Source: Candidatus Daviesbacteria bacterium
GTDB taxonomy: Bacteria; Patescibacteriota; Microgenomatia; Daviesbacterales; UBA10151
Direction: 5' to 3'
Length of the DNA: 64,000 bases
NCBI GenBank assembly: GCA_028712705.1
Contig: JAQTPP010000003.1
Location: 64,052 to 128,051 of the forward strand
The notes under the pieces are model-generated. The model was not told where the DNA came from. It saw only the letters and a list, made by a program, of their open reading frames with translations, and ran no database searches. The position numbers and the translations under genes are program-made. Positions 1,810 to 40,174 of the stretch are shown one piece after another; position 1 is the stretch's first letter, and each line of letters starts with the position of its first letter.

Positions 1810-3618
1810 ATGAAAATAGCAATTATTACAGTTAATTACAATGGTAAAAAAGATACTTTAGAGTTGCTGAGATCGTTTTCCATACTACCAACTACTAACT
1901 ACCAGCTACTAACCATCGTGGTTGATAATGCTTCATCGGATGGAAGCGTCTCTGAGATCAAAAAAAGTTTTCCTGAGACAGATATTTTGCAAACCGGAGA
2001 GAATTTAGGGTTCTCCGGCGGTTACAACAAAGGCCTGGATTATGCAAATATCTGGGGGGCAGATTATTTTTTACTTATCAATAACGACTGTTTGATAAAA
2101 GATCCTAATTTAATTTCAGAACTGGTGAAAATAGCGCAGTCCGATCCTAAAATTGGTCTGGTTTCCCCGAAAATTTATTTTGCCAAAGGTTTTGAATTCC
2201 AAAAAGGCCGATATCAAGAGGAAGATTTGGGCAAAGTCATTTGGTACGCCGGAGGGCAATTCGACTGGGATAATATTGTCTCAATCCATCGGGGAATTGA
2301 TGAGGTTGATAAAGGCCAATATGATGATGTGAGTGAAGTGGAGTTTATAAGTGGCGCATGTGTGTTAATTAAAAAAGAGGTTATCGAGAGAATTGGTCTA
2401 TTTGATGAAAAATATTTCCTGTACTTTGAAGATGGCGATTTTATCAAAAGAGCCAGAGATGATGGATTTAAAATTTACTACGATGGTCAAGTAGCGGTTT
2501 ACCACAAAGTTTCCAGCTCAACCGGTATTGGCTCTAAGATAACAGATTATTATCATACCAGGAACAGGTTAATTTTTGGCATGCAATATGGAAGATTGAG
2601 GACCAGATTTGCCCTGGTTCGGGAGGCGGTTAAGCTTTTGATTTTTGGTAGGTCTACTCAAAGAAGAGGCATTTCGGATTTTTATTTAGGAGTAACAGGA
2701 CACAATCCTGGTTTGAATAAAGACAAACCAGGATTGAATTTCGGTATCGAATATCCGCTGAAACTTTCAATCGGTATAGTCAATTACAACACCCCTGATC
2801 TTACTAAAAAGTTATTAAAAAGCATTTTTGATAAAGATTCCGGCTTTGATGAGAAGACTATGGAAGTAATTGTTTTAGATAATGGTTTAACAAATCCTTG
2901 CAAAGATGCCATCAAAGAATTTTTACCAAAAATAAAATATCTAGAAAATTTAGATAATGAAGGGTTTACCAAAGGTTATAACAAGACAATCAAGTTTTCC
3001 CTGGGTGAATATTACCTGATGTTTAATTCTGATATAGAAGTTTTAAAAAACGGCATTTCAGAATTAGTCAAAGTTGAAGATGAATTTGAGGGTAAAGCTG
3101 TTTTGGGCGGGAAATTGCTTTTTCCTGACGGGAGCGACCAAGATAGCGCTTTTCATTTACCTACTTTGACCGGTGCTATCAAAGAATATTTTTTTGCTCT
3201 GAAAGGTGCTTATTTTATGTATTTACCCACTTCACCTGGAAGGAGTCAAAGTCCACCTTCCAGGTGGATTAGAGTTGAAGGACTGGTGATGGCCTGTCTT
3301 TTGATCCCCAAAAAAATCTTAAATCAGGTGGGACTGTTGAATGAGGAAACTTTTATTTTCTTTGAAGATATTGAGTATGCCAGAAGGTTGAAAAAGTTTA
3401 AGATCCCTGTTTACTACGTCCCTGCTGCCAAATTCATGCATCATCACGGCGGTTCGACTAAAAAGATTGGTCAGGAAAAAGCTAATGAACATTTAATAGA
3501 ATCCTCAAAACACTACCATGGGAAATTTTATTACACACTGCTTTCTTTTGTTTTACGTTTGGGTCAAAAATTTGGCAGAGTCAAAACTCCTGTAGCCAGA
3601 TGGAAAAAAAGCAACTAG
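1810..3618 (+). CDS. two-domain (tandem) family 2 glycosyltransferase
   Basis: 602-aa ORF with two GT2-like modules: IAIITVNYNGKKDT...VDNASSDGS, then a second IVNYNTPDLTKK...VLDNG. Confidence 0.75.
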   Translation: MKIAIITVNYNGKKDTLELLRSFSILPTTNYQLLTIVVDNASSDGSVSEIKKSFPETDILQTGENLGFSGGYNKGLDYANIWGADYFLLINNDCLIKDPNLISELVKIAQSDPKIGLVSPKIYFAKGFEFQKGRYQEEDLGKVIWYAGGQFDWDNIVSIHRGIDEVDKGQYDDVSEVEFISGACVLIKKEVIERIGLFDEKYFLYFEDGDFIKRARDDGFKIYYDGQVAVYHKVSSSTGIGSKITDYYHTRNRLIFGMQYGRLRTRFALVREAVKLLIFGRSTQRRGISDFYLGVTGHNPGLNKDKPGLNFGIEYPLKLSIGIVNYNTPDLTKKLLKSIFDKDSGFDEKTMEVIVLDNGLTNPCKDAIKEFLPKIKYLENLDNEGFTKGYNKTIKFSLGEYYLMFNSDIEVLKNGISELVKVEDEFEGKAVLGGKLLFPDGSDQDSAFHLPTLTGAIKEYFFALKGAYFMYLPTSPGRSQSPPSRWIRVEGLVMACLLIPKKILNQVGLLNEETFIFFEDIEYARRLKKFKIPVYYVPAAKFMHHHGGSTKKIGQEKANEHLIESSKHYHGKFYYTLLSFVLRLGQKFGRVKTPVARWKKSN

Positions 3619-7193: not shown

Positions 7194-8801
7194 TTGTCAA
7201 AAAATCTTTTAAATTCCAAACGGCTATTTTTAGAAGTTTTTTATGCTATACTGACAAAAATGGAAGGTCAGGGAGGCGGAATCGATAATGAACCAAGTTT
7301 ACATAAGATAGATCGTGGTTTTGACCTAAAAGCAGTTAGATCGCTGGTGAGAAAATTAGATAATCCAGGTCTTTGGAAAAACGGAAACGAAGCCAAAAAG
7401 ACGCTCTACGAACTATGGGAAAAGAGGCCCACTCTAGCTTCTGGATTAGATAACAAAGCTTCTATAGGAGTCACCTTGAAATCTTTCAGGCACCTTCAGA
7501 CTTTTGATTACAATAGATATCTACCTGATTATGCAGTAGAGGAAGCGAGAGCTGATGTCGATAGATTAGTTTTAGACAATATTCCTGCTATAGACAGAGC
7601 TGTAGAAATTAGTGCTAACCCTGCTGATCTGCAACTGAGTATCGATTTAGTTACTGGCGTGCTTAACGCAGGTGAACTTTCTCAAGACAGGAGAGAGACA
7701 AATTTTCTATTAAAACACTTTGAAGAGGGACTAAGAAGTGACGATTCAGAAGACGAGAAGGAGCCTGGATATACAAAATACCATCTTATAGCTTCAAAGA
7801 TGTTTCTGAAAATGGATGAAAATCAACGCGCAAGAGCAATGGAAATGTTTCAGGCTATGATTGATAATCCTGAAATAGGAAAACAGGCAGTTTATGTAAT
7901 AAACGTTCTTTCTGGAGATCAAATGATTCCTGATAACGCAAGGGAAGAAATCCGAAGAACTTTAACTAAACCAATAATCAATAAACTTGGATTAGATTAT
8001 GATGAATTGACAAAAGCTTGGATTAGCGGCAGTGATGAGATTATTGGTAATTATTTTTATCATACAAGGAATTTAAATCAAATTTTTATTCTTGAATCTA
8101 CCAACCCAGGGATTTGCAGAACCTTAAAGGATGAGTTCGGAATAACTAATTTTGATCGCTACCCCCGAGAATTATTAGTAGATTTATTTGAGCAAAGAAA
8201 TAGCACAAATACTCCTTATGGCTTAATGTTCTATCCTAAAAGAGACCATAGTGGGGCTGCTTATTTGTCAAAAAGCGTTGTGGGGAAGTTTTATAAGCAA
8301 CTTAAATCTCTTGGATATGGTTTAAGACTTTATGAGGTGGGCAGCAAGATAGACCTTGCTAGAGCTTTTATAACTTCTCAAAATAAGTTCGGCACTAGAA
8401 ATAAAATAGACTTTGTTATTCTGGTTGGACACGGCAATCCGCAAAGCATAACTTTTGGAGAAACTGGTAAAAATGCTGAAGCAGGAGAAGAAATAAACGA
8501 CCACAATGTAAAGGGTATTATTCACCAACTTGATTTTGAGGGGAAAGGCGTGCAGCGAATTGGTGAATTATTGTCTAATAATGCAAATATAATTCTTGTA
8601 TCCTGCTCTACGGGCGCAGCTGAGGGAATAGGAAAGACAATTTCCGAAACATATCCTGGCACGTTGGTGACAGCACCTGAAACTCCTACTGATTTAAGAG
8701 GTATAGATGTGACAAAAGATGACCAAGGCAAATTGCGCTTTAGAGTTGCTTATAGATCAGCAGATACATCAAGGTCTTTTGAGTCCGGAAAATCAGTTTA
8801 A
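7194..8801 (+). CDS. hypothetical protein with C-terminal caspase/CHAT-like His-Cys domain
   Basis: 535-aa ORF (alternative start MEGQGGG at 7260 after TATACT). C-terminus DFVILVGHGNPQS ... about 60 aa ... ANIILVSCSTGAAEG fits the beta-strand-HG / beta-strand-C pattern of the caspase fold. Confidence 0.55.
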   Translation: MSKNLLNSKRLFLEVFYAILTKMEGQGGGIDNEPSLHKIDRGFDLKAVRSLVRKLDNPGLWKNGNEAKKTLYELWEKRPTLASGLDNKASIGVTLKSFRHLQTFDYNRYLPDYAVEEARADVDRLVLDNIPAIDRAVEISANPADLQLSIDLVTGVLNAGELSQDRRETNFLLKHFEEGLRSDDSEDEKEPGYTKYHLIASKMFLKMDENQRARAMEMFQAMIDNPEIGKQAVYVINVLSGDQMIPDNAREEIRRTLTKPIINKLGLDYDELTKAWISGSDEIIGNYFYHTRNLNQIFILESTNPGICRTLKDEFGITNFDRYPRELLVDLFEQRNSTNTPYGLMFYPKRDHSGAAYLSKSVVGKFYKQLKSLGYGLRLYEVGSKIDLARAFITSQNKFGTRNKIDFVILVGHGNPQSITFGETGKNAEAGEEINDHNVKGIIHQLDFEGKGVQRIGELLSNNANIILVSCSTGAAEGIGKTISETYPGTLVTAPETPTDLRGIDVTKDDQGKLRFRVAYRSADTSRSFESGKSV

Positions 8802-9051: not shown

Positions 9052-9227
9052 GATAAGCTAAATTATATCTAATTTTTATGGTTATTGCTATGCCTGAATT
9101 GTTTTCAAAACTGTTCACATTAATGTCACAGTCGTAGTATTAATGTGAACAGAGATGTTTGAAGTGAAAATTTGAAGTGAAAAAAGATTCGCACAAAAGG
9201 ATCCACACCTGATATAATCAATTTTAT

Positions 9228-12040: not shown

Positions 12041-13741
12041 TCAGGGTCTCGTTAGAGGATTTAATTCTATTTCCAAAACAGCTACTCTTTGATCAATCCC
12101 AAATTTATTAACAAATCTCGGATGAATTTCGGCCATACCGTCTGTATATCTTGTTGGATGAAAATATTCTCTTGATTTTCCACCTCCGAGGTGTAATTGC
12201 ATTTTTTCACCTCGGAGGTGTTTTTGTGCTTGCTGGAAAATTTGGTTAAGCTCCTGGATGGGATTATCGGTATCATTACACAAAGCAATTGCCAGATGGT
12301 AATTCTCATGGGGTAAATCTCCTTTTTGCGGAGTATATATTTTCCCTAATTCAAAAATAGCAATATCCTTTATTCCATTCCTGATATTTTTGGCAGCTAC
12401 TTCTAAAAGATTCGGCCAAAGATTGTCCCTTAAATACTCGGTTTCGGACGAAATAGGATTAGCAATTTTAACCAAATTGTTTTTATCCCGGTCCAAATTA
12501 TTTAAAACACCAGTTGAGTAAAAAGAATATGTTTGCACTTCTGTTAAACCTGCCTCTTTTAAGGATTTTTTTAAATCATAAATAAAATTGGGAAAACTTT
12601 GATCGATTTTCTCCGGAAGATTCCCTTCAAGTGTTTTTGGGGGGATTTTTTCATACCCATACATCCTGGCTACTTCCTCTACCAGGTCTTCTTCAATGCT
12701 GATATCCAGTCTCCAGTATGGCACTGTGACATTCCAAACCATTCCACCTCGAAGGTGTAATCGCATTTTTTCACCTTCGAGGTGTTTTGCTTCTAGTCTA
12801 AATCCTAGTTTTTTGAGGGATGATTCTGCCTCCTCTGGTGGAATGTCTACCCCAATTAATGAATTGATTTTTTGCCGGGTCAGTTGAATGGTTTTTACTT
12901 GATCCTGAAGATTTCCCGTAAATGTAATGGCAGTCAGTTTGCCACCCAAACCTTCATACATTTTGATGGCAGCAGACAAGGCTTGGAGCAAGTTGGTTTT
13001 AGTTAGGCCGTGCTGGAATCTTTTAGTCGCTTCCGAGTAAAGACCGTGTTTTTTAGAGCTTTTTCTGTTGAAAACAGGATCAAAAATGGCTGCCTCCAGA
13101 AGAATAGTTGTTGTTTTCTCTGTAACTTCCGAATTTTTTCCTCCCATTACTCCGGCAAGCGCCAGAGCTTTTTCTGAATCCGTAATTAATAAGTCAGTTT
13201 CATCTAAAGTTCGATCCTTTCCATCAAGCGTCATAATTTTTTCATCCTGCTTGGCAGTTCTCACAATCAACATCCCGTCTTTGACTTGAGATGCATCAAA
13301 GGCATGCATGGGCTGGTCATACTCAAGCATGATCAGATTAGTAACATCAGCAATGTTATTGACAGATCTGACGCCGCAATCTGTTAATTTTTTTACCCAT
13401 TGATCGGATGATGGTTTAATCTTAATGCCTTCAATTTTAGCTACACAATAAACTGGACAAAGACTTTTATTGTCAACTTGTACCGGGGTTTCAGGCAGGC
13501 AAGGATAAGTAGGTGGTTTGAGGTTTGAAAATAATAGCTCAGAGTCTGTTACAGCAGCTACTTCTCTGGCTACTCCGCGCATGGAAAGTAAATCACCCCG
13601 ATTGTATGTTAAATCTAATTCCAGATAGTCTTGTGTTTGATTTTTTATCCCAATGGAAATAAGCGACAATTTATCTGCCAGTTCTTGAGGAGATAGATTA
13701 CAGTTAACCAATTCTTTGAGCCAGGAAAGTGAAACTCTCAT
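12041..13741 (-). CDS. pheT: phenylalanine--tRNA ligase beta subunit
   Basis: MRVSLSWLKELV start; directly downstream of pheS. Carries two in-frame hairpin insertions. Confidence 0.85.
   Translation of the reverse strand: MRVSLSWLKELVNCNLSPQELADKLSLISIGIKNQTQDYLELDLTYNRGDLLSMRGVAREVAAVTDSELLFSNLKPPTYPCLPETPVQVDNKSLCPVYCVAKIEGIKIKPSSDQWVKKLTDCGVRSVNNIADVTNLIMLEYDQPMHAFDASQVKDGMLIVRTAKQDEKIMTLDGKDRTLDETDLLITDSEKALALAGVMGGKNSEVTEKTTTILLEAAIFDPVFNRKSSKKHGLYSEATKRFQHGLTKTNLLQALSAAIKMYEGLGGKLTAITFTGNLQDQVKTIQLTRQKINSLIGVDIPPEEAESSLKKLGFRLEAKHLEGEKMRLHLRGGMVWNVTVPYWRLDISIEEDLVEEVARMYGYEKIPPKTLEGNLPEKIDQSFPNFIYDLKKSLKEAGLTEVQTYSFYSTGVLNNLDRDKNNLVKIANPISSETEYLRDNLWPNLLEVAAKNIRNGIKDIAIFELGKIYTPQKGDLPHENYHLAIALCNDTDNPIQELNQIFQQAQKHLRGEKMQLHLGGGKSREYFHPTRYTDGMAEIHPRFVNKFGIDQRVAVLEIELNPLTRP
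12181..12220. repeat. perfect hairpin element inside pheT, copy 1
   Basis: CACCTCCGAGGTG-taattgcatttttt-CACCTCGGAGGTG: 13-bp perfectly complementary arms. Translated in frame as KHLRGEKMQLHLGGG. Confidence 0.7.
12745..12784. repeat. perfect hairpin element inside pheT, copy 2
   Basis: CACCTCGAAGGTG-taatcgcatttttt-CACCTTCGAGGTG. The arms differ from copy 1 at the centre but remain perfectly complementary (compensatory changes). Translated as KHLEGEKMRLHLRGG. Confidence 0.7.
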
Positions 13742-13745
13742 AAGA

Positions 13746-14786
13746 TTAATGCTCTTGCAGAAACTTTAAATCTCCTTCCAGGAAATATCTGATATCTTCT
13801 ATCTCATGTTTTATCATTAGCATCCTGTCAGGTCCAAAACCCCAGGCTAAACCGGTATATTTTTTAGGATCCAGTCCTGTAGACTTAAAAACATTCGGAT
13901 GAATCATACCTGCTCCTGCTATTTCAAACCAACCTGTTCCCGAACAGATTTTACAACCGCGTCCATGACAAAACACACACAGGCAATCTATTCCAACTCC
14001 TGGTTCAACAAACGGGTAATATTTTGGCCTGAATCTAGACTTGGCCTCTTTGCCCAAAATTGCTTTGAGAAGATAATCAGATAGGAATTTTAAATTAGCC
14101 ATAGTTATCTTTTCGCCGACAACTGCCACCTCAAACTGGTTAAAAGTGTGTGAATGTCTTGCATCAATTGCTTCGTATCTAAAGCAGCGGTCAAAACTCA
14201 TCGCTCTAATCGGAGTTTTGCCTTTCTCCATTAATCTCGGCCAAAAATTGGAAGTATGGGTGCGCAGCAGCATTTGCCCGGGTTCAACTTCCAGCCCGGA
14301 GGTATCTACATACAGCGTATCCCACATATCGCGGGAAGGATGGTCCCTGGGGATATTCAGGTATTCAAAATTATATTTATCCCATTCGACGTGAGGGGCA
14401 TCAAATTGATAAAAGCCTAATTTTTCAAACAATTCTATAATTTCCTGTTTAAACTGAGTAGCAAGATGCAGATGTCCCTTCCTAGGCTCCAGGGCGTCCC
14501 CCTGGAGGCTAAGTTTTTCACTCTCCAGTGCTTTATAAGACTCTTCTCTAACCTCTTTCCTTCTTTTTTCTATTGCTTTTTCCAAATCATTTTTTGCTGC
14601 AATAAACAAAGGGGCAAGAGTTTTTAATTCCTCTTTTGCAATCCTGGAAAATCCTTTAGGGATAAGGGTTATTTGCCCGTTTTTTCCAAAAAGCGCCAAA
14701 AAAATCTCATCAAGCTCTTTTAAGCTTTTTGTCTTTTGAATTTTTTCCAGGTAATCTTTTTGGATTTGAGAGATTTTTTCTTCCAC
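13746..14786 (-). CDS. pheS: phenylalanine--tRNA ligase alpha subunit
   Basis: 346 aa. Class II aaRS motifs (FDRCFRYEAIDARHSHTFNQFE, GAGMIHP). Confidence 0.9.
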   Translation of the reverse strand: MEEKISQIQKDYLEKIQKTKSLKELDEIFLALFGKNGQITLIPKGFSRIAKEELKTLAPLFIAAKNDLEKAIEKRRKEVREESYKALESEKLSLQGDALEPRKGHLHLATQFKQEIIELFEKLGFYQFDAPHVEWDKYNFEYLNIPRDHPSRDMWDTLYVDTSGLEVEPGQMLLRTHTSNFWPRLMEKGKTPIRAMSFDRCFRYEAIDARHSHTFNQFEVAVVGEKITMANLKFLSDYLLKAILGKEAKSRFRPKYYPFVEPGVGIDCLCVFCHGRGCKICSGTGWFEIAGAGMIHPNVFKSTGLDPKKYTGLAWGFGPDRMLMIKHEIEDIRYFLEGDLKFLQEH

Positions 14787-17414: not shown

Positions 17415-17487
17415 GGGTGGTTAGCTCAGCTGGTAGAGCGCATTCTTGACGTGAATGAGGTCACAGGTTCGATCCCTGTACCGCCCA
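17415..17487 (+). tRNA. tRNA-Val (anticodon GAC)
   Basis: Cloverleaf: acceptor GGGTGGT/ACCGCCC, anticodon loop ttGACgt, T-loop TTCGATC. Confidence 0.85.
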
Positions 17488-17492
17488 CAGAA

Positions 17493-18098
17493 TTAGCCTA
17501 CTGCTTGGAAAGAGAGATTACCTTTCGAACCGGAGGCTCCTTCAAATGCGACCTCCAGAGAATTTGGTTGTTTGGTCGAACTAGGTATTTCTGTATCTGC
17601 CTTCTGTTGCGCAGTTGCAAGTGCTTCTTCTTTAGCTTGCCTATATAGTTCAGTCATGTGGTAAGGATCTTCTGTATGTGCTCTTCTCAAACTAGCGTTT
17701 AATCGAAGTCTCCTATTCCTATCCTCCTCAGACATACCTGCAACTCCATGTCTAATTTCTTCTTGGGTAACAAATTCAATCCGAGATTGCCTAAGGATAC
17801 TTTCTGCTTCAGCAACAGCAGATCGTTGTTCTGCCAGCAATTGTTGATCAGTTTTTTCAGGGGTTCTTGGAATTTGGAAACCGGTAAGCGAGCCGGTTTC
17901 CAAACCCTTTGGTCTTGTTTCGTGCCATTTGGTTGCTTGACTTAATTGTTCAACACCGACTGGTCCTTCGTTTACATAACCCGCGCCACTACCTATAATT
18001 GTATCAAAGATATTTTCGAAAGTGCCTCCAATAATATCTCTAGGGTTAACTTTTTCCCTTTTTGGTTGCGTTGATTGTAAAATAGTTGTATCAGTCAT
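17493..18098 (-). CDS. hypothetical protein
   Basis: 201-aa ORF between two tRNA genes; no recognisable motif. Confidence 0.5.
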   Translation of the reverse strand: MTDTTILQSTQPKREKVNPRDIIGGTFENIFDTIIGSGAGYVNEGPVGVEQLSQATKWHETRPKGLETGSLTGFQIPRTPEKTDQQLLAEQRSAVAEAESILRQSRIEFVTQEEIRHGVAGMSEEDRNRRLRLNASLRRAHTEDPYHMTELYRQAKEEALATAQQKADTEIPSSTKQPNSLEVAFEGASGSKGNLSFQAVG

Positions 18099-18145
18099 AT
18101 TAGATTGTTATTTTACAACTTTATGACTATAAGTCAAGAACAGGG

Positions 18146-18226
18146 TGCCCGGGAGAGGAGTCGAACCTCCATGCTTTGCGGCACAGGATCCTAAATCCTG
18201 CGTGTCTACCATTCCACCACCCGGAC
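18146..18226 (-). tRNA. tRNA-Leu (anticodon TAG), long variable arm
   Basis: Reverse complement: GTCCGGGTGGTGGAATGGTAGAC..., anticodon loop ttTAGga, T-loop TTCGACT. Confidence 0.8.
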
Positions 18227-18259
18227 GCGAGATGATCATTTTAACAGAATATTAAGGAT

Positions 18260-19006
18260 TTAACCAAATTTTCTAATAGCGCTACTTTGTGCTTGAAGTT
18301 CTAAAGTATCATTCAGGGGTTCCAGTTCAATTTTCCCGCCATATTTTACTTCCAGAGCTTTTTTCAGCAGCCAATCAGCAAGTTTTGGATTTTTGGGCAA
18401 AAGCGAGCCATGCATATAAGTGCCGACGGCATTTTTATAAATACAGCCTTCAGTCTGATCCTCCCTGTTATTGCCAAAGCCTTTTACTACCATGCCTAAA
18501 GGTAAAGCGCCTTTTTTCAGGTAAGTTTTTCCGGAATGATTTTCAAATCCTACTAATTTGCCAAACATAGATTCGATTATGATATTGCCGATCATCCGGT
18601 CATGGCTTGCTACAGTATATGCTGGAAATAGTCCTACGCCAGGAAGCTTTGGGCCATTGTGGGGTTTATAATAATCCCCTAAAAGCTGGTAACCACCGCA
18701 AATAGCCAGAAGAGGAACTCCTCTTTCAACTTCTGATTTTATGCTTTTTCCCTTGCTACTTACTACCAAATCCCTTGCTACTAACTCTTGTGCCTGATCT
18801 TGCCCGCCTCCGAAAAAGTAAATATTGATTTTTTTACTTGACACATCGGATGTGTAAAGTTTATCGTCTATAGAAATATTTTTGACGTCAACCTTAATTC
18901 CTCTCCACTCTGCCCGCTTTTTCAGGGCAATGATATTGCCTGTGTCCCCATAAATATTCATCAGATCGCCGTAAAGATAACCGATTGTAATTTTCATTTT
19001 ATTCAT
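18260..19006 (-). CDS. gatD: lipid II isoglutaminyl synthase, glutaminase subunit GatD (CobQ-type GATase)
   Basis: 248 aa. MKITIGYLYGDLMNIYGDTGN, conserved Cys in LLAICGGYQLLG. Overlaps the murT end by 8 nt. Confidence 0.75.
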   Translation of the reverse strand: MNKMKITIGYLYGDLMNIYGDTGNIIALKKRAEWRGIKVDVKNISIDDKLYTSDVSSKKINIYFFGGGQDQAQELVARDLVVSSKGKSIKSEVERGVPLLAICGGYQLLGDYYKPHNGPKLPGVGLFPAYTVASHDRMIGNIIIESMFGKLVGFENHSGKTYLKKGALPLGMVVKGFGNNREDQTEGCIYKNAVGTYMHGSLLPKNPKLADWLLKKALEVKYGGKIELEPLNDTLELQAQSSAIRKFG

Positions 19007-20360
19007 CCTCCCAGTAATGTTTCTTGATGCCGGCTTTAGTCAGGATTGATTGCAGTTCCAGCATGGCAGTATATGTGGGAAGGATGAACAGTTTGCCTTT
19101 TAAGCCCATTCCAGCTTGTTTCAGAGCCTGTTTCAGGTCCGGTTGTATTTTAATTTCTTTAGGATTAAAATTGGCATATTTCAAGCGGAGCGCCAGATCA
19201 TTTGCCCTGGAACCGGAAGCAATTATTGTATAGTCCCTCGACTTCGCTCGTTCAGAAAGATTCGATGAATTTTGAATGAGTTCAAAATTCGCATCCCAGA
19301 TCCATGATACGTCTGTACCGTCCGCAATATTGTCATTTAATGCCAGAAGCATTCTGTCCCCGGGTTTGATATTTGGTGCAATAGTTTCAAAGACCTGGGT
19401 AGCTCCGGCCGGATTTTTGATCAGGAAAATATACCCCATGTATCCTACCTCGGAGGTAGGAGTACGATGAGACGTAGGGTTTAAATGGAATTTCTCGACC
19501 CTGCCAAAGGCAGGTGAATAGGTTTTCAAGGACAAAACCATTTCATCAGGATCTATATTTAACATTGTTCCTGCTGCAAAGGCAGCCAAAAAATCATAGA
19601 TATGGTAGATACCGGGAACCGGAAGATGGACGATGGAAGATTGATAATGGAGAGAAAGTGAGAATGAAATTCCGGTTAACCCGTTTGTTTTGACATTTTT
19701 TGCTTCAAAATCCAAGTTTTCGATTTCTTTCTTGTGAATAATTGATTCTCCGGCAATCGTGTAATCCTTGACACCAAATTTTTGAACTTTACCTCTAAAA
19801 CAGGCAGCCAGCTTTAATATGTTGGCATCGTCGCCGTTAACTAAAACCGCAGTTTCCGAAGAGAGCTTTTTTAGTGCCTGGCACCAGTTTTTGGTCACAG
19901 TATCAATTTCACCATAACGGTCAAGTTGATCACGGAAGACATTCAAAAAGATCACAACTTCAGGGTTTAGCTTTGGAGTAACGTTGTTGAAAGCTGCCTC
20001 ATCCAGTTCCCAAATCCCTAGGTCAAAATTTAGCCTGCAACCTTTCAGGTTGACGCACAGGTTGACGCATGAAATTAGAGTAGAGGCGATGCCGCGCTCA
20101 AGATTGGAACCGGTATGATTTCTGATAACTTTAAGTCCTGTTTCTTTTGCAAAATGGGCCAGCATTTTGGCAGTAGTGGTTTTGCCGTTAGTTCCGGTTA
20201 TCACTACATTTTTGGGGATTTTAGCAGCTAATTTTGCAACCAGATTCGGTTCGATAGACAGGGCATATAAACCCGGAGCAGCTGATCCTCCTCCGAGTTT
20301 AAAATTACGGGTGAGGAAAAAAATTAGTTTACCTACTAAAATGGCCAGAATAAATCGCAT
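18999..20360 (-). CDS. murT: lipid II isoglutaminyl synthase, Mur-ligase-like subunit MurT
   Basis: P-loop VITGTNGKTTTAKM, Mur ligase middle domain, DUF1727-like C-terminus. Likely start is the ATG at 20360 (MRFILAIL), 6 nt after TTATAAT. Confidence 0.8.
   Translation of the reverse strand: MRFILAILVGKLIFFLTRNFKLGGGSAAPGLYALSIEPNLVAKLAAKIPKNVVITGTNGKTTTAKMLAHFAKETGLKVIRNHTGSNLERGIASTLISCVNLCVNLKGCRLNFDLGIWELDEAAFNNVTPKLNPEVVIFLNVFRDQLDRYGEIDTVTKNWCQALKKLSSETAVLVNGDDANILKLAACFRGKVQKFGVKDYTIAGESIIHKKEIENLDFEAKNVKTNGLTGISFSLSLHYQSSIVHLPVPGIYHIYDFLAAFAAGTMLNIDPDEMVLSLKTYSPAFGRVEKFHLNPTSHRTPTSEVGYMGYIFLIKNPAGATQVFETIAPNIKPGDRMLLALNDNIADGTDVSWIWDANFELIQNSSNLSERAKSRDYTIIASGSRANDLALRLKYANFNPKEIKIQPDLKQALKQAGMGLKGKLFILPTYTAMLELQSILTKAGIKKHYWEDE
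19445..19482. repeat. palindromic repeat (family 2) inside the murT coding sequence
   Basis: CCTACCTCGGAGGTAGG palindrome followed by agtacgatgagacgtagggt; close homologue at 55398-55439. In frame: HRTPTSEVGYMG. Confidence 0.5.
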
Positions 20361-20372
20361 GTGAGCATTATA

Positions 20373-20405
20373 ACTAGTCACTAGTCACTAGTCACTAGTC
20401 ACTAG
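20373..20405. repeat. tandem heptanucleotide repeat (ACTAGTC) x 4.7
   Basis: Exact tandem copies immediately upstream of the murT -10 box and start. Confidence 0.9.
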
Positions 20406-20411
20406 AGTTAT

Positions 20412-21008
20412 TTATCTTAAGGCTAATTGGCCCGAGATGGCAGCTATCTTTGGAACAAAACCGATATTTGCCTGCATATTTTCGCCTTCAAAAGTGTTTG
20501 CGAACTTTTCTAAATCATTCATGAAATATGAAACCTTTCCACCCCAATAAGGGGAAGCAGCATAAACTCTGTTTATGGAATAAGGGTTTGTTAAACCTTT
20601 GTTTAAGTAATTTTCGCGTAAACCTTTAGCGACAGTAAAAATAGCTTCTCTCCATGAACTAAAATAAATAGCCTGGGTGCCATAAACTCCCCAACCCCAT
20701 CCATTAAAACCTCCCGGTATAGCTTTTCCGAAAGTGGATTCAACGCCTGCGATTGAGGGTAGAAGTTTCCAGTCTAAATTATATTCGTTGGCAGCATCAA
20801 TAAAATCCTGCGCATGATATTGCAGCGGAGAATCAAATTTTTTCAAATAGGCAGCTAAAATTTCTGCTTTGCTATCCAATTTTCTGGATTGCACCTGGGT
20901 AACCTGGTCAGTAATTTCCATCTTTTTTTCCGCCCGAACTTGCATGTTTGGGAAAAGGAATAGAAGAGTTAATAAAAAATAAAAAATTTTTAATTTTTTT
21001 GTTTTCAT
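20412..21008 (-). CDS. secreted or anchored glucosaminidase-like (FlgJ/Acm-type) peptidoglycan hydrolase, paralog 1
   Basis: 198 aa. N-terminal signal/TM region, LLPSIAGVESTFGK motif. Confidence 0.55.
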   Translation of the reverse strand: MKTKKLKIFYFLLTLLFLFPNMQVRAEKKMEITDQVTQVQSRKLDSKAEILAAYLKKFDSPLQYHAQDFIDAANEYNLDWKLLPSIAGVESTFGKAIPGGFNGWGWGVYGTQAIYFSSWREAIFTVAKGLRENYLNKGLTNPYSINRVYAASPYWGGKVSYFMNDLEKFANTFEGENMQANIGFVPKIAAISGQLALR

Positions 21009-21133
21009 AGCTTTTAAAAAACCCGTACCAGAGGGTACAGGTTTTTAAGACCGATAGTATAACAGAAAAGGAGTCAGAAGTCAAACTATTACCTCGAAGG
21101 AGTCAAAGCTTACCTTCGAGATGACTGCAAGAA

Positions 21134-21736
21134 TTATCGCAGTTCTTCCATGAAGGTAAAAACGCCTTTAGCCCAGCTTCCGTCCACGAGCAGAGATGGA
21201 GGTGTGTATTTGGTCATTATCTGGTATGGTGTTTTTAAACCTTGATTTAAGTAGTCCTCGCGCAGGGCTTTGCCAACCCTTTCAATTGCCTCTTCCCATG
21301 AATTAAATTTGAGCACCATACCGCCATATATGCCGTATCCGAATGGATTATAGGAATGATTAATAACTTTTTTCCCGCCGTTTGATTCCTGCATGGCGAT
21401 TGAAGGCAATAACCGGTAGTCCAACTGGTATTTATCGGCAACCTGGATAAAAATATGGCTATAATCGGATAAGGGTGATTTGTAATTTTTCAAAAAATCC
21501 TCAATTATTTTTGCCCTGCCGTCAGCATAGTTTATTTCGTCTGTAATAGATGTTCCGGATTTAGGTAAAGCTGCATATAGCTTAAAGCTTTGTCCGCCAG
21601 CTGGCGGATTGGGTTTAATTATTTTAGTGTTTGAGAGGTACAAGGTAAAAGTAAGTGAAAATATTAAAGCGGTAGTTGCTGCTGCAAACCAGGCGGCAAC
21701 AAACCACACATTGGTTTTAAGGTTGAGATTGTCCAT
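21134..21736 (-). CDS. glucosaminidase-like protein, paralog 2
   Basis: 200 aa. LLPSIAMQESNGGK; colinear with 20412-21008 along its length. Confidence 0.55.
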   Translation of the reverse strand: MDNLNLKTNVWFVAAWFAAATTALIFSLTFTLYLSNTKIIKPNPPAGGQSFKLYAALPKSGTSITDEINYADGRAKIIEDFLKNYKSPLSDYSHIFIQVADKYQLDYRLLPSIAMQESNGGKKVINHSYNPFGYGIYGGMVLKFNSWEEAIERVGKALREDYLNQGLKTPYQIMTKYTPPSLLVDGSWAKGVFTFMEELR

Positions 21737-21822
21737 CTGCTAAAAATTTCTGCAATTGATAGTAACCAGAATTTTTGTCTTTTGTCAATACTTCGGCGAT
21801 CTGCGCGCAGGCATTTTTGAGA

Positions 21823-22842: not shown

Positions 22843-22880
22843 TTAGTGGATATTATACAACACTGGTATAATTAACAAGC

Positions 22881-22966
22881 GCCGAAGTGATGGAATGGTA
22901 GACATGCAACGTTCAGAACGTTGTGAGCGCAAGCTCGTGCAGGTTCAACTCCTGTCTTCGGCACCA
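22881..22966 (+). tRNA. tRNA-Leu (anticodon CAG), CCA encoded
   Basis: GCCGAAGTGATGGAATGGTAGAC..., anticodon loop ttCAGaa, long variable arm, ends ...CTTCGGCACCA. TGGTATAAT lies just upstream (22866-22874). Confidence 0.85.
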
Positions 22967-22967
22967 T

Positions 22968-23051
22968 GCCGGGGTGCTGAAATTGGTAAACAGACTACCT
23001 TGAGGTGGTAGCGCCCGTAAGGGCTTGCAGGTTCAAGTCCTGTCCCCGGCA
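22968..23051 (+). tRNA. tRNA-Leu (anticodon GAG)
   Basis: GCCGGGGTGCTGAAATTGGTAAAC..., anticodon loop ttGAGgt. Only 1 nt from the preceding tRNA. Confidence 0.85.
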
Positions 23052-23057
23052 CTGAAA

Positions 23058-23129
23058 GGGCACTTAGCTCAGCGGTAGAGCGCTTCGTTTACATCGAAGA
23101 TGTCGGGGGTTCAAATCCCTCAGTGCCCA
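23058..23129 (+). tRNA. tRNA-Val (anticodon TAC)
   Basis: GGGCACTTAGCTCAGCGGTAGAGC..., anticodon loop ttTACat. Confidence 0.85.
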
Positions 23130-23162
23130 CTTGTAGATGTACATGATATAATCCCAAAATAT

Positions 23163-24926
23163 ATGTGTGGGATATTTGGATACATTGGATCTAAGAATGC
23201 TTCCGAGGTAATTTTGGAAGGTTTAAAAAGACTGGAATACCGGGGTTATGATTCTTGGGGTATTGCGGTAGTAGCAGATCAGATTAAGCTTAATAAAAAA
23301 GTTGGAGCGATTGGCGATTTGAACCAACTAATTAATCTGCCAAAATCCAATGCCGGGATTGGCCATACCCGCTGGGCAACTCATGGAGGAGTGACCCAAA
23401 CAAACGCCCATCCGCATTTTTCTTCAGACAAATCTTTTGTCCTTGCGCAAAACGGCATTGTGGAAAATTACCAAAAGCTCAAGCACTATTTGAAGAACAA
23501 AGGAGCGAAGTTTGCGACAGAGACCGATACAGAAGTAATTGTCCGGCTGATAGAAGACAAGCTAAAGGACAGCAAGGATTTACAAGAAGCCGTAAGGAGA
23601 GCTTTTTTGCTCCTTGAGGGGAGAAATACCATTATTCTTGTGACAAAAAAAGGCCGGATTATAGCTTGCCGGAATGGCTCCCCTTTGGTGGTGGGAATTA
23701 ACGGCAAAGAAATATTTTTTTCTTCCGATACACTATCGTTTGCTCCTTATGTAAACAGAATAATAGTTGTAGAAAACGGGCAGATGATAACCTGGAGTGG
23801 CAAGCTGCAACTTAGGGATATCAAATCCAACAAAGATTTGCCTTATCATTCGGAGAAGATTGATTTTAAAAACAGCAAAGTTGATAAAGAAGGTTATGAT
23901 CATTTCATGCTTAAGGAAATTCATGAGAGCCCTTATGTCATCAGTCAGGTTTTAAATCAAGACTTTAAGTTATATGAGGATTTCATCAAAACATTAAAAG
24001 AAGCCAAAAATGTTTATACAGTCGGTTCCGGATCAGCCGGCATCGCCGCATCGGAGGTCGCTTTTTACCTTCGGGTATTTGCTCAAGTTAACGCAAGAAG
24101 CGTCATAGGCGCTGATATGTATGACTACTATGATTTATTAACTAAGGATGATTTGATCATTGCTCCTTCGCAATCCGGTGAAACAGCAGATGTTTTGGAA
24201 GTTCTGGAAATTGCCAAGAAGAAAGGTGTTAAGGTTGCCTCATATGTTAATATGCCTGGTTCTACTATGACCAGAATGTCTGATTACAAATTTCACTCAC
24301 ACGCAGGACCGGAGATTTGTGTGATGTCCACTAAAGTTTTTACCTCACAAATTGCCTGGGGATATCTGATAGCAAAAATGGCAAGCGGAAAAAGCAAAGA
24401 AGGAAGAGTTAACTTAAAGAAATTAGCTGAGGAAATGGATAAATACTTGAATACAAATACAAACCACGAAGCGATCAGGAATCTGGCAAAAATTTTAGCT
24501 AAACATAAAGATATCTTTCTGCTGGGCAAATATCAAAATTTTAATATTATCAGTGAAGGAATGGTTAAAATAATAGAAGGATCATACATACATGCTCATG
24601 GTATCCCTGCAGGAGACTTAAAGCATTATGCAATAACCTTGATGGAAAAGGGTGTACCGGTAATTGCGGTGGTATCAGAGGATTTGGCCAAGGATGACGT
24701 GATAAATGCAGTTAATCAGGTTAAGGCAAGAGGCGCAACAGTAATCGGCATTTCTCCCGCTGCCTGCGCTGTCTTTGACCACTATATTCCTGTTCCTGAC
24801 AGCGGTGAAACTTCTGCCATCATGAATATAATCCCCTTGCAGCTCCTGGCTTATTATATGGCTGTAAACTTAGGTCATAACGTAGATAAGCCCAGAAATA
24901 TTGCCAAAAGTGTAACAGTTAAGTAA
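23163..24926 (+). CDS. glmS: glutamine--fructose-6-phosphate aminotransferase
   Basis: MCGIFGYIG N-terminal nucleophile, two SIS domains, C-terminus ...AKSVTVK. TATAAT at 23147-23152 sits 10 nt before the ATG. Confidence 0.9.
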   Translation: MCGIFGYIGSKNASEVILEGLKRLEYRGYDSWGIAVVADQIKLNKKVGAIGDLNQLINLPKSNAGIGHTRWATHGGVTQTNAHPHFSSDKSFVLAQNGIVENYQKLKHYLKNKGAKFATETDTEVIVRLIEDKLKDSKDLQEAVRRAFLLLEGRNTIILVTKKGRIIACRNGSPLVVGINGKEIFFSSDTLSFAPYVNRIIVVENGQMITWSGKLQLRDIKSNKDLPYHSEKIDFKNSKVDKEGYDHFMLKEIHESPYVISQVLNQDFKLYEDFIKTLKEAKNVYTVGSGSAGIAASEVAFYLRVFAQVNARSVIGADMYDYYDLLTKDDLIIAPSQSGETADVLEVLEIAKKKGVKVASYVNMPGSTMTRMSDYKFHSHAGPEICVMSTKVFTSQIAWGYLIAKMASGKSKEGRVNLKKLAEEMDKYLNTNTNHEAIRNLAKILAKHKDIFLLGKYQNFNIISEGMVKIIEGSYIHAHGIPAGDLKHYAITLMEKGVPVIAVVSEDLAKDDVINAVNQVKARGATVIGISPAACAVFDHYIPVPDSGETSAIMNIIPLQLLAYYMAVNLGHNVDKPRNIAKSVTVK

Positions 24927-37538: not shown

Positions 37539-38447
37539 GTGGATATTTTAACCATAATTTTAATAGTTTCCGGTCTGGTTTTATTTGAAACTATCTCTTC
37601 GGTGGATAATGCCATTATTAATGCCCAGGTTTTATCGACCATGGGAGCGAGGGCTAAAAGATGGTTTCTTTTTTGGGGTTTACTGATAGCCGTTTTTTTG
37701 ATAAGAGGATTGCTGCCTTTTTTGATAGTCTGGATTGCCAACCCTGATTTAGGGGTTGCGGGTATTTTGTCAGCGACTTTTTCAAGCGACCCTGCGGTGG
37801 TGGAAGCAATTGAGAAGTCAGCACCTATTTTGCTGATCGGCGGAGGCACCTTTTTGGTTTTTCTTTTTTTTCACTGGTTGTTTTTGGAAACTAAGAATTT
37901 TGGCCTTAGGGGTGAGCGGTTTTTGCTTTCTCAGGGCGTCTGGTTCTATGCGGTTGTCTCTGTAATTTTAGCCGTCATTGTTTGGTTTGCGCTAAAAGTA
38001 AATCCTTTAATGGCGTTTGGGGCAGTAGTTGGTTCAACTGCTTTTTTTATCACCCACGGGTTTAAGCAAAATGCCGAAGATCAGGAAAAGAAACTTTTTT
38101 CTACCACCAGGTCTGATTTGAGCAAGTTATTTTATCTGGAGGTAATTGATGCTACTTTTTCCATAGACGGGGTGATCGGAGCCTTTGCTTTTACCCTGGT
38201 AGTTCCTTTGATTTTACTGGGTAATGGAATTGGCGCTTTTGTTGTTCGAGAAGTTACAATTCATAATATCGAAAGAATTAAAAAGTATATATTTTTAAAA
38301 AACGGAGCCATGTATTCAATTTTCTTTTTGGGAGTAATCATGGTTTTGGATAGTTTTGGTTTTGATATTCCCTCGTGGCTGTCCCCTGTTGTAACAGCAC
38401 TAGTAGTAGGTTATTTCTTCCTAAAATCCAAAAAAGCCTTAGCTTAA
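37539..38447 (+). CDS. TerC/DUF475-like integral membrane protein
   Basis: 302 aa. SVDNAII motif near N-terminus; multiple TM helices. Confidence 0.55.
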   Translation: MDILTIILIVSGLVLFETISSVDNAIINAQVLSTMGARAKRWFLFWGLLIAVFLIRGLLPFLIVWIANPDLGVAGILSATFSSDPAVVEAIEKSAPILLIGGGTFLVFLFFHWLFLETKNFGLRGERFLLSQGVWFYAVVSVILAVIVWFALKVNPLMAFGAVVGSTAFFITHGFKQNAEDQEKKLFSTTRSDLSKLFYLEVIDATFSIDGVIGAFAFTLVVPLILLGNGIGAFVVREVTIHNIERIKKYIFLKNGAMYSIFFLGVIMVLDSFGFDIPSWLSPVVTALVVGYFFLKSKKALA

Positions 38448-38503
38448 AAAGTACGGTGTCAACCTATCCCACCCCAGGGGTGGGATACGCACACACAGTT
38501 ATT

Positions 38504-40174
38504 TTACCAGAAGAATTTGTTTGAGGTACTGATTCCAAAAAGCGCATTGCCCAAAGGGCTTGCTGGAAAAATCGCTAACCCCCTTTTTGCGAATTCTTGA
38601 GCCGATTCCAAGTTTCCGGTTTGACTTAGAAATAAAGAGAGTCGTAAATAAGAAAGATGAGAATCAAAGCGATACCTGCCAGGATCCAGCTTGGAAAGGT
38701 CAATAGGCTCCAGGGGGACGCCTTGCGAGGCTACGACATTGTTTTTTACTAGTATAATCATAAAATCATCTACATAAACTATTCTCCAATCAGGATCTTT
38801 AACTACTGAGGTTAAAAAAGCTTTTCCCCAGGGAGTTTGATCTGTGTGGGAAAAAACAATGGTCTTAAAGCCAATTTTTTGATCTAACTCTTTAAACTTT
38901 TGTGGATCAGATTGAGCTGGAATATATACATTCTGGAAAAATTCCTTAGGATACTCTCCGGGCCTGCCATCCACAAAGACTCTATATTTTGGCCAACCTC
39001 TGTAGGTAATATAGCTGCCAATATCAAAATTGTTAAAAACAGGTTGGGGTAAATTATTTTTTAAAACAAAATCCAAAGCATTCCTGCCGCTTTCTTTAAA
39101 TTCCAATTTTGGACGGTCGTCGCTGCTGGTGTATTTGTAATAATCCCCGTTTAGGTAAAAATAGCTTTCCAGAAGCAGCAGCGGAACTGTTATTATAGTA
39201 AAGAGTTTACGAAACAAGACGGGTTTGGGGATGCCGAAATTTTCCAAAATTGCCGGTAGTGAAATGAATACAAGATAAGGGAAGCTACGCACATTCGCTA
39301 GGGCAAGAGTCAGGCCAAAGCCGGCAAGAAGAAGATTTTTAATTAAAAGCCTTTTTTTAAACAAGGCAACTGCGGTTGATAATAAAATAGTTGCGGCAGC
39401 GAGTTTTACAAACAAAAAATTAGGGTTTCTAAAATTGATGCTTTCCAGGAGGAACATTGTCTGGTTTTCAACAATGGTGTATCCATAATTTTGGTTGAAA
39501 GTAAACGGGTTCAGAAAACCTGCTAAGCCACTGGGGTTGGCCAAACTTACTACAACCGATAGTCCAAAAATAAATACTAACAACTTCAGCTTTACACCCT
39601 TGGGGTGTAAACGGAGGTTTTGAGAGGCTAGATGAATTAGAAAAATGGCTTGTAAGCTTAGGCCTACAAAGAAATAGATGTGGGTATTGATCCAAACAAG
39701 CTGAATTATGGGCAGAAGGTAAAGTAATTTGGTAGGACTTTTTAAGTATTTCTCCAGTATGAAATAAGTGCTGGCTGTAAACAGAAAGCTGAAAATTTCC
39801 GGCCTAAGATCCGGCCTTTCCCTTAAAGTATGTAAAAAGATAAAACCAACAGGCAGCAGCAGATACTGGTTTTTAGGTATTGTTTTTAGAACCAGCCAAA
39901 CAGACAGTAAAAATATAACAACTTTCAAAACCAAAACTGCTTGCAGACCGATTGTTTGTTGTCCCAAGTAAACCAGTAGTTCAAAAAACCAGTGACTATT
40001 TATAAAAGGAAAATCTGGATAGGTATAAGAAAACAGGTTAGTTAGGGGTACGTTTTTAGTTTGCCAGATAATTTCACCCAATTTTAGGTGCCGTCCTAAG
40101 TCCTGGTCAAACGAGTGGTCGGTTCTAAAAAGAAAAGAAAAAACAAAGAAAAGAAGCAAAATTTTTGCCCACAT
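38504..40174 (-). CDS. large polytopic membrane protein
   Basis: 556-aa ORF, more than 10 predicted TM helices, soluble C-terminal domain. Confidence 0.55.
   Translation of the reverse strand: MWAKILLLFFVFSFLFRTDHSFDQDLGRHLKLGEIIWQTKNVPLTNLFSYTYPDFPFINSHWFFELLVYLGQQTIGLQAVLVLKVVIFLLSVWLVLKTIPKNQYLLLPVGFIFLHTLRERPDLRPEIFSFLFTASTYFILEKYLKSPTKLLYLLPIIQLVWINTHIYFFVGLSLQAIFLIHLASQNLRLHPKGVKLKLLVFIFGLSVVVSLANPSGLAGFLNPFTFNQNYGYTIVENQTMFLLESINFRNPNFLFVKLAAATILLSTAVALFKKRLLIKNLLLAGFGLTLALANVRSFPYLVFISLPAILENFGIPKPVLFRKLFTIITVPLLLLESYFYLNGDYYKYTSSDDRPKLEFKESGRNALDFVLKNNLPQPVFNNFDIGSYITYRGWPKYRVFVDGRPGEYPKEFFQNVYIPAQSDPQKFKELDQKIGFKTIVFSHTDQTPWGKAFLTSVVKDPDWRIVYVDDFMIILVKNNVVASQGVPLEPIDLSKLDPGRYRFDSHLSYLRLSLFLSQTGNLESAQEFAKRGLAIFPASPLGNALFGISTSNKFFW

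Follow-up and report, generated by a model that had tools for sequence, protein, structure and literature searches.

A 40-base palindromic repeat lying in frame in pheT and other housekeeping genes of Candidatus Daviesbacteria

Palindromic repeats are known from several systems. Rickettsia palindromic elements (RPEs) are repeats of about 100–150 bp found in Rickettsia (Ogata et al. 2000, 2002; PMC10969869). REPINs consist of two inverted repetitive extragenic palindromic (REP) sequences and the spacer between them; they form hairpins and owe their mobility to RAYT Y1 transposases, and singlets are their remnants (PMC3116915). A REP carries a GTAG or CGTC tetranucleotide tag at one end (PMC3733652). 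In the mitochondria of Nematomorpha, coding palindromes occur as local repeats of up to 284 bp, the arms of which encode conserved protein regions (PMC6649704). The present study deals with a stretch of 64,000 nt from Candidatus Daviesbacteria, a bacterium of the Candidate Phyla Radiation (CPR), which is called the window here, and with two perfect hairpins of 40 nt that lie in frame in its gene pheT. It was found that these hairpins belong to a 40-base palindromic repeat family that is dispersed over unrelated housekeeping genes of Daviesbacteria. In-frame palindromic repeats in essential genes had previously been described as a peculiarity of Rickettsia. The repeat is best filed as an in-frame palindromic repeat of the type already known from that genus, new in its size and lineage and set apart from the RPEs on these two grounds. 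A second, independent and much smaller system of this kind in ultra-small CPR bacteria would show that such repeats are a recurring outcome of genome reduction. The literature searched contained no description of such elements in CPR bacteria; its coverage was incomplete and an earlier description is possible.

Two hairpins in pheT and a dispersed repeat family

pheT codes for the beta subunit of phenylalanine--tRNA ligase (566 aa; Pfam B3_4, B5 and tRNA_synthFbeta) and occupies positions 12041..13741 on the minus strand, with pheS (13746..14786) directly upstream. Its product is 100% identical to a Candidatus Daviesbacteria protein on record, at NCBI and in an independent Logan assembly, and structure comparison revealed a fold that resembles bacterial PheRS beta chains. 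The first-pass annotation of this DNA had described two perfect hairpins inside the gene, each with 13 stem pairs around a loop of 14 nt, and re-reading of the sequence bears this out. The forward strand reads CACCTCCGAGGTG-TAATTGCATTTTTT-CACCTCGGAGGTG at 12181-12220 and CACCTCGAAGGTG-TAATCGCATTTTTT-CACCTTCGAGGTG at 12745-12784, and in both cases the arms are complementary at 13 of 13 positions. On the coding (minus) strand the hairpin at 12745..12784 (copy 1, pheT site 1) reads CACCTCGAAGGTG-AAAAAATGCGATTA-CACCTTCGAGGTG and encodes HLEGEKMRLHLRG, residues 320-332 of PheT, which lie in the B5 domain between strands 315-319 and 335-339. The hairpin at 12181..12220 (copy 2, pheT site 2), likewise on the minus strand, reads CACCTCCGAGGTG-AAAAAATGCAATTA-CACCTCGGAGGTG and encodes HLRGEKMQLHLGG, residues 508-520, in the catalytic-like domain between helices 494-506 and 521-526. 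Both are read in frame, as had been proposed, and the open reading frame (ORF) of pheT stays open through KHLEGEKMRLHLRGG (residues 319-333) and KHLRGEKMQLHLGGG (residues 507-521). The 40-nt pattern has two matches in the window as against 0.00 in 100 shuffles, and folded as RNA the two hairpins reach about -26 kcal/mol (z = -6 to -7.6). The copies differ from each other at two stem pairs, C-G to G-C and G-C to A-T; both changes are compensated, and each copy stays self-complementary as first described.

Copies outside pheT were to be expected if the hairpins are an inserted element, and the repeat is indeed present in many other genes of Daviesbacteria genomes. Genome contigs were scanned with the arm pattern CACCYNNNRGGTG-N12-16-CACCYNNNRGGTG, which gave at least 119 loci, to be taken as examples and not as a census. 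The matches listed are mostly unrelated GC-rich sequences or other hairpin families (of Omnitrophota, Planctomycetia and other Patescibacteria), and among them are same-loop copies in other Daviesbacteria genes. A loop-anchored scan of metagenome contigs with GGTG-N3-5-AAATGCRATTACACC, in which only the four loop-adjacent stem pairs are fixed, gave 89 loci that fall into two cleanly separated groups. On low-GC contigs 34 matches show 0-2 mismatches over the nine free stem pairs (32 of them are perfect), and about 55 unrelated matches show 3-9 mismatches over the same pairs. After pooling of both scans and removal of duplicates there were at least 42 copies, at what amounts to at least about 21 independent sites. 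About 85% of the listed copies lie in coding sequence, 37 of 42 being inside stop-free reading frames of 200-1114 codons. Hosts confirmed by Pfam in the sense frame are PheT (two sites), TsaD, an OmpR-type regulator, a GHMP kinase (two sites), MurB, MurD, CysRS, PGK, a SpoU methylase, DinB and RF1/2. From their translations UvrD/PcrA, a UvrB-like protein, CarB, a P-type ATPase, a SucC-like ATP-grasp protein (two sites), a pilin leader and a large membrane protein were assigned as further hosts. The other five copies lie at gene ends: two (L123, L196) come immediately 3' of a stop codon, one (L188) is immediately upstream of a start codon, where its arm 2 takes the position of a Shine-Dalgarno sequence, and two (L210, L170) supply the gene's own stop codon. 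Metagenome-assembled genomes from other samples carry the same element at the same pheT positions.

A covariance model was built from 24 distinct copies. Over the window it gave a full score only at the two pheT copies (67.6 bits, E 8e-14 for copy 1; 69.6 bits, E 3e-14 for copy 2), and it also picked up a related hairpin at 3233-3266 (E 0.0025). Rfam covariance models run against the window returned only tRNAs at gathering score and no family for the hairpins. A protein-database search with a 45-aa concatemer of the element peptide yielded no candidate, and the IMG/VR viral contigs that were scanned contained no family copy and hence gave no sign of phage carriage.

The unit is 40 or 41 nt long and is made of two inverted 13-nt modules, CACC-N5-GGTG, and an asymmetric A-rich spacer of 14 or 15 nt (consensus AAAAAATGCGATTA). 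In single-stranded form, be it DNA or RNA, it folds into a hairpin of 13 bp at about -26 kcal/mol. Each module is itself nearly palindromic, so that the two arms are inverted repeats and near-direct repeats alike. In the alignment of the 24 sequences CACC/GGTG and most of the loop are invariant, and five central stem positions are variable. It was observed that 99% of the cells are paired and that all five variable pairs have changed on both sides; none of 500 shuffles reaches the observed covariation score, and pairing falls to 41-56% when the partner columns are shifted by sliding. There are about ten stem versions, and the same versions recur across different genes. Compensation is also seen at orthologous sites, namely at PheT site 1 in three genomes (TCGAA/TTCGA, CCGAA/TTCGG and CCGGG/CCCGG) and at the MurD site, where L133 and L205 differ by a compensated stem change.

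The peptide could have been conserved with the palindrome as a by-product, and it had been pointed out that orthologues carrying the peptide without a nucleotide palindrome would speak against the element. DNA of PheT orthologues was chosen by protein similarity and the peptide motif and not by nucleotide pattern, and all nine copies obtained (9/9) are perfect palindromes, in five stem versions. The site-2 copy in the PheT orthologue P0008 (67% protein identity) is identical to the window copy at 40 of 40 positions. Among PheT orthologues, codons for the same amino acid are identical in 174 of 208 comparisons (84%) inside the element as against 3196 of 6438 (50%) in the rest of pheT; this synonymous-codon test was used in place of the identity of element versus flank (95% vs 70%), which is inflated by exact-pattern discovery. 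The codons of the element are rare in the window: every His is CAC (38% of His codons), CTC makes up 5% of Leu and CGA 6% of Arg codons. The palindromes that are kept, the codon identity and the rare codons together indicate that what is conserved is the nucleotide sequence along with its pairing, and not the peptide. The claim that structure, and not just sequence, is conserved thus stands in so far as pairing is kept across copies; it has to be qualified in that a mutational process, the correction of near-palindromes by template switching, could keep the pairing instead of selection.

Insertion sites, reading frame and orientation

Alignment of 120 PheT orthologues showed that both sites are hypervariable, with a loop of 0-38 aa at site 1 and of 10-59 aa at site 2. 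Few orthologues have the full element, namely 5 of 119 at site 1 and about 9 of 119 at site 2, and these lie scattered on the neighbour-joining tree; a single H-L/P-x-G arm is found in 23 and 40 orthologues, respectively. The AlphaFold2 model of PheT has a mean predicted local distance difference test score (pLDDT) of 91 and a predicted template modelling score (pTM) of 0.74, and its lowest internal blocks are the two inserts (pLDDT 61 at residues 321-330 and 58 at residues 511-520). In the model the element segments thus fall in variable, low-confidence, insert-tolerant loops; the first-pass annotation had supposed them to be insertions in surface loops. Site 2 has turned over recently: between the window and its relative L001 the flanks are more than 90% identical and a segment of roughly 60 nt is wholly different.

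Further loop peptides that recur at site 1 come from translated hairpins as well. In the 'LASQ..WEV' type one arm consists of the codons for the conserved W-E-V, and A-S-Q is encoded by the reverse complement of that arm; this coding palindrome, made locally, occurs in L237 5201-6871 (P0006) and L238 1223-2860 (P0064), and in P0086 (L236 10001-11725) one hairpin is nested within another. As to the protein as a whole, the PheT of the window is only 566 aa long, with Pfam matches limited to B3_4, B5 and the catalytic-like domain, as compared to 775-836 aa for solved bacterial PheRS beta chains, and all 120 orthologues are similarly short (495-591 aa). The protein appears to be without two domains, which we read as the B2 EMAP-like tRNA-binding domain and the C-terminal B8.

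MurD provides three states of one site. Most orthologues are empty (P0122, 79% identical to the filled protein, reads L-K-A-A-G-K-K-V-I-L-A-G-N), P0138 has a single arm (L-K-I-S-H-L-G-G-V-I-L-A-G-N) and L133 and L205 are full (L-A-I-HLRGEKMRLHLGG-V-V-L-A-G-N). The full state exceeds the empty one by 27 nt, the length of one arm (13) and the loop (14) together, or 9 codons. In other genomes the same positions in MurD, in PheT and in a glycosyltransferase family 2 (GT2) protein hold other hairpin-type inserts. These positions are hot spots, be it that inserts are tolerated in few loops only or that the arm as such is targeted. The MurD hot spot is the loop after the GKST P-loop helix; the MurD orthologues compared (P0121-P0240) are 419-506 aa long, and three longer ones have an extra Pfam domain. 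An insert of MurD, GVNLSHPRGGQRTHPWK, which holds a CACC-type arm, is present in the source genome itself (P0167, on the 130-kb source contig outside the window) and in a close relative.

With a 14-nt spacer the predicted peptide is a hydrophilic segment of 13 aa, H-L/P-x-G-E-K-M-R/Q-L-H-L/P-x-G, and with a 15-nt spacer the frame reads T-S-E-V-K-K-M-R-L-H-L-G-G (TSEVKKMRLHLGG). As the copies are intragenic, in sense orientation and in a stop-free frame, the ribosome would read the element as a peptide segment; translation is deduced here from the sequence. The loop has its ATG in the host frame at 18 of 21 sites; in the pilin copy the codon is GTG. The commonest arms pair an anti-Shine-Dalgarno CACCUCC with GGAGGUG, and GGTG-AAAAA-ATG resembles a ribosome-binding site followed by a start codon. 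This resemblance should be taken as a lead and not as a finding, because only GGTG/CACC is invariant. Two functions for the hairpin were considered and set aside. Excision from the mRNA was ruled out, since 40 nt is no multiple of 3 and the intragenic copies are stop-free in the host frame. For an antisense terminator, a plus-strand run of T follows both window copies, but other copies lack A-rich 5' flanks.

All intragenic copies listed carry the A-rich loop on the coding (sense) strand, which over 21 independent sites has a probability of about 5e-7 under equal odds. When the consensus is read in six frames, stop codons are absent from two frames in the sense and from two in the antisense direction, one of the open antisense readings (PPRCNRIFSPRR) being hydrophilic, and an orientation imposed through stop codons alone is thereby ruled out. 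In L202 two convergent neighbouring genes have one sense copy each, so that a bias by replication direction does not explain the orientation either. Selection on the peptide may be behind it, or else an RNA function or a coupling to transcription. The strict sense orientation and the 27-nt arithmetic are handles on the mechanism of insertion.

Comparison with described systems and possible origin

The first-pass annotation had likened the pheT hairpins to RPEs. The likeness holds as an analogy: in both cases palindromic repeats lie in frame in many unrelated housekeeping genes of a bacterium with a reduced genome (here 37 of 42 listed copies, with hosts confirmed by Pfam), apparently at positions compatible with the fold, and are translated, translation being deduced in the present case. 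It does not hold in the sense of one and the same family, from which the element is set apart by size and lineage, RPEs being about 100–150 bp long and found in Rickettsia/Alphaproteobacteria, whereas the element is 40-41 nt (13 aa) long and found in Candidatus Daviesbacteria of the Microgenomates, that is in CPR/Patescibacteria. In addition, about 85% of the listed Daviesbacteria copies are intragenic as against roughly half of the RPEs, and perfect covarying stems, a strictly sense orientation and single-arm remnants mark the contrast further.

In architecture the repeat comes close to REPINs. Two inverted, short, imperfect palindromes and a spacer form a hairpin, here with two near-palindromic units of 13 nt, a 14/15-nt spacer, 99% pairing and about -26 kcal/mol; the doublets are better conserved than the singlets, and homologues of Y1_Tnp are present in some of the same genomes. 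REPs and REPINs are, however, extragenic by definition, whereas about 85% of the Daviesbacteria copies are in coding sequence, and the unit of 13 nt is smaller than that of REPs (about 20-60 bp). No GTAG or CGTC tag was found in the element, the arms of which begin with CACC and end with GGTG, and the flanks are unconserved. [quoted passage not shown] In contrast to MITEs no target-site duplication was detected, 40 nt is far below their usual size, and the inverted ends take up two thirds of the Daviesbacteria element. The coding palindromes of Nematomorpha are likewise perfect inverted repeats within translated sequence in which structure and protein function are kept together, but they are local repeats and do not make up a dispersed family whose members have a loop in common. 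The 'LASQ...WEV' hairpins of PheT, which are local too, are closer to them than the 40-nt element of pheT is. Elhai et al. 2008 reportedly described small dispersed repeats (SDRs) in Nostoc and other cyanobacteria, of about 21-27 nt, which form hairpins and insert into one another. The SDRs resemble the present case as very small dispersed hairpin repeats and in nesting, as in P0086, and differ in sequences, lineage and unit structure. Of these systems, RPEs are the closest in behaviour and REPINs the closest in architecture.

Our preferred reading, to which a probability of roughly 0.6 may be given, is that the element is a REPIN-shaped, RPE-like translated repeat, non-autonomous and of the REP/REPIN kind. 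The doublet of inverted palindromic units would answer to a requirement of the copying machinery for a hairpin or paired ends, and the candidate enzyme in the lead is a Y1/HUH transposase of the RAYT/IS200 type. Distinct stem versions would be subfamilies. Selection in the host would purge copies that break the frame or damage the protein, so that the survivors would be in-frame loops at a few tolerant hot spots; where there is almost no intergenic space, repeats would survive only where they are translatable. Single arms (H-L/P-x-G) could be remnants of a 27-nt deletion between the near-identical arms or, alternatively, sites at which the missing 27 nt are gained, a spacer and an arm that make exactly 9 codons. 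After insertion, pairing would be kept through selection or template-switch correction. The perfect stems may be due to selection, be it for mobility or for an RNA or DNA function, or they may be due to template-switch correction of near-palindromes, a process with signs in these genomes, namely the local 'LASQ...WEV' hairpins and the perfect hairpins with a stem of at least 11 bp in the window (9 vs 0.23 in shuffles). The element would then be a REPIN-like repeat adapted to, or filtered by, a genome with almost no intergenic space, with an outcome like that of RPEs.

As regards the enzyme, Y1_Tnp (PF01797) homologues lie 1-7 kb from CACC-arm hairpins in 4 of about 70 CPR loci. These are Y1 (HUH) transposase genes with HFHLL and Tyr motifs (L002 14557-15219, L072 131-646, L078 5365-5889 and L080 423-1001), and the one in L002 adjoins the block of pheT and a penicillin-binding protein (PBP) gene. 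At these four loci no arms adjoin the gene as they would in a repeat-flanked RAYT.

A number of observations weigh against a mobile repeat of the REP/REPIN kind. By the covariance model the window has just two full copies, both in one gene, no mobilising enzyme was found among its 32 scanned ORFs, and at the four Y1_Tnp loci no hairpin arms directly flank the transposase gene. No target-site duplication was seen in the filled versus empty MurD or in the flanks of the listed copies, and no conserved flank is visible around these copies. The recurrence at few sites and the gain of 27 nt, and not 40 nt, agree poorly with simple insertion by cut-and-paste or copy-and-paste. The strict sense orientation at at least about 21 sites is not explained by stop codons alone. 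Conservation as high as that seen between orthologues could mean function and not selfish spread, and part of the identity statistics comes from copies found by exact pattern and thus carries an ascertainment bias.

It is possible, though on the whole unlikely, that the repeat is a functional cis-element of the mRNA sense strand or of the non-template DNA (a binding or processing site, a stabiliser or a pausing signal), the spread of which has been adaptive. The sense orientation at every site despite two open antisense frames would be explained in this way, as would the convergent genes of L202, each with a sense copy against the expectation from replication direction, and the copies outside ORFs, of which L123 and L196 are placed immediately 3' of a stop codon and L188 immediately upstream of a start, with arm 2 as a Shine-Dalgarno sequence. 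The perfect stems and conserved loops at orthologous sites with flanks about 70% identical, and the commonest arms CACCUCC/GGAGGUG, after which come A5 and an AUG that shares the host frame at 18 of 21 sites, point in the same direction. Most orthologues of each host gene, however, are without the element and evidently functional, turnover between close relatives is fast, there is no Rfam match, and only GGTG/CACC is invariant, so that the Shine-Dalgarno resemblance is not kept in every stem version. The orientation bias could also result from selection against the VIAFF and the Cys/Pro-rich peptides of the antisense readings. A version of this idea that combines function with spread seems somewhat less probable still. 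It would have a lineage-specific functional hairpin spread via the transcribed sense strand, possibly by a gain of exactly 27 nt (9 codons) that is coupled to transcription, or mediated by RNA or non-template single-stranded DNA, where a 13-nt palindrome is already in place; selection would keep the hairpin for a role in the mRNA, its stem mimicking a Shine-Dalgarno/anti-Shine-Dalgarno duplex and hiding a ribosome-binding site and an in-frame AUG. If true, CPR bacteria would have a new class of mobile or regulatory elements that reside in coding regions.

The hairpins could also be non-mobile, made and kept perfect locally by template-switch (fold-back) replication errors at hot spots that code for loops, with their similarity due to convergence. 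Such errors would account for the clearly local hairpins in the same PheT loop (the W-E-V arm and its reverse complement 'LASQ' in P0006 and P0064), the nested hairpins of P0086, the excess of perfect hairpins in the window, the compensated changes at orthologous sites, which are the expected product of near-palindrome correction, and the net gain of 27 nt as one arm plus loop. Nevertheless the explanation is improbable, as an identical or near-identical asymmetric loop of 14 nt in about 20 unrelated genes of many genomes cannot be convergent and identical stem versions recur in different genes. Far less credible is the proposal that the peptide H-L-x-G-E-K-M-x-L-H-L-x-G-G is a functional module and the palindrome incidental. 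The peptide does recur in frame, is hydrophilic and Gly/His-rich and resembles a beta-hairpin-forming segment, and its second half M-R/Q-L-H-L-x-G is found at 18 of 21 sites. The proposal is already contradicted by the second frame used in other hosts (TSEVKK..., TFEVKKSDYTSEV), by the free variation of residues at the stem centre (R, E, P, G, A) where the bases nevertheless stay paired, by fixed rare codons with a synonymous identity of 84% vs 50%, by copies outside ORFs and by the low model confidence at the inserts. An artefact of assembly or sequencing, such as a chimeric join or an adaptor hairpin, deserves next to no weight: library preparation sometimes yields perfect palindromes, but the element is found at the same codon positions in independent NCBI, JGI, ENA and Logan assemblies from different samples, always in frame and with evolutionary variation.

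Under the preferred reading as a REPIN-shaped translated repeat, the element would be a source of diversity in protein loops, in which variable loops are quickly reshaped, as at pheT site 2 amid flanks that are more than 90% identical. It would also offer a natural test of the limits of mRNA, with a structure of -26 kcal/mol and Shine-Dalgarno-like sequences inside coding mRNA. For CPR phylogenomics it calls for caution, since the segments inflate the apparent divergence of the markers PheT, MurD and the release factor (RF); they can be masked with the covariance model.

Related hairpins and other features of the window

The arm motif CACC-N5-GGTG occurs 7 times in the window as against 0.33 expected. 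A related in-frame hairpin with the same arm type and a different 12-nt loop, CACCTGGAAGG-agtcaaagtcca-CCTTCCAGGTG, lies at 3233..3266 on the plus strand in the GT2 glycosyltransferase gene (1810..3618) and encodes SPGRSQSPPSRW; at the orthologous site of the 88%-identical relative L001 one stem pair has changed from A-T to G-C with compensation. A single arm is present as the 19-nt palindrome TTACACCCCAAGGGTGTAA at 39592..39610 on the minus strand, in frame as LHPKGV in ORF 38504..40174, and the core of this palindrome also occupies pheT site 2 of L001. Another single arm, CACCCCAGGGGTG at 38470..38482, for which no strand is assigned, is part of the palindrome TATCCCACCC-cag-GGGTGGGATA between ORF 37539..38447 (plus strand) and ORF 38504..40174 (minus strand).

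Among the nine perfect hairpins of the window there are others outside the CACC family. The hairpin at 2703-2736 (CAATCCTGGTTTG-n8-CAAACCAGGATTG) is in frame in the same GT2 gene, where it reads HNPGLNKDKPGLN, and that at 17873-17904 (TTTGGAAACCGG-n8-CCGGTTTCCAAA) is in frame in ORF 17493..18098. Two perfect hairpins lie in no long ORF. That at 9111-9152 (stem of 14 bp, loop of 14 nt) is located between tRNA-Tyr and the PBP gene, and that at 58292-58328 (stem of 13 bp, loop of 11 nt) upstream of tRNA-His. They could serve as terminators or operators.

Families with CACC...GGTG arms also exist elsewhere, for example CACCCCGTAGGTG-AGCCATATGGCT-CACCTACGGGGTG in Omnitrophota. The matches listed from the arm-pattern scan include loci of Omnitrophota (L004, L012, L016, L031, L040, L044, L085, L089, L090, L096 and L111), of Planctomycetia (L017, L046, L047, L057, L068 and L118) and of Patescibacteria (L030, L045, L049, L093, L107, L108 and L115). 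In other Microgenomates/Patescibacteria the same arm type with other loops lies mostly in short ORFs, and as the best covering ORFs are mostly short, this Patescibacteria hairpin family is probably intergenic and REP-like. Coverage by ORFs is mixed in Omnitrophota, and the longer ORFs in the GC-rich Planctomycetia may be spurious.

Several low-GC contigs entitled 'uncultured Gammaproteobacteria bacterium isolate binchicken_...' (L002/L058, L024, L053, L076, L083 and others) look mislabelled. L002/L058 (GCA_964551605.1) has a PheT of the Daviesbacteria type and synteny with the window, and other such contigs (GC 0.36-0.43) carry copies of the element. Within the window itself, Pfam gave no match for the ORFs 38504-40174 (556 aa), 56436-58193 (585 aa) and 7194-8801 (535 aa), and a large ORF of 1928 aa lies at 43141-48927. 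The window is dense in tRNA genes, with 14 in 64 kb (17415-27350 and 42582-42754 were noted) and a Leu-Leu-Val run at 22881-23130. A GlmS-like ORF (23100..24926) overlaps at its start with the 3' end of tRNA-Val, and its true start codon is therefore probably further downstream.

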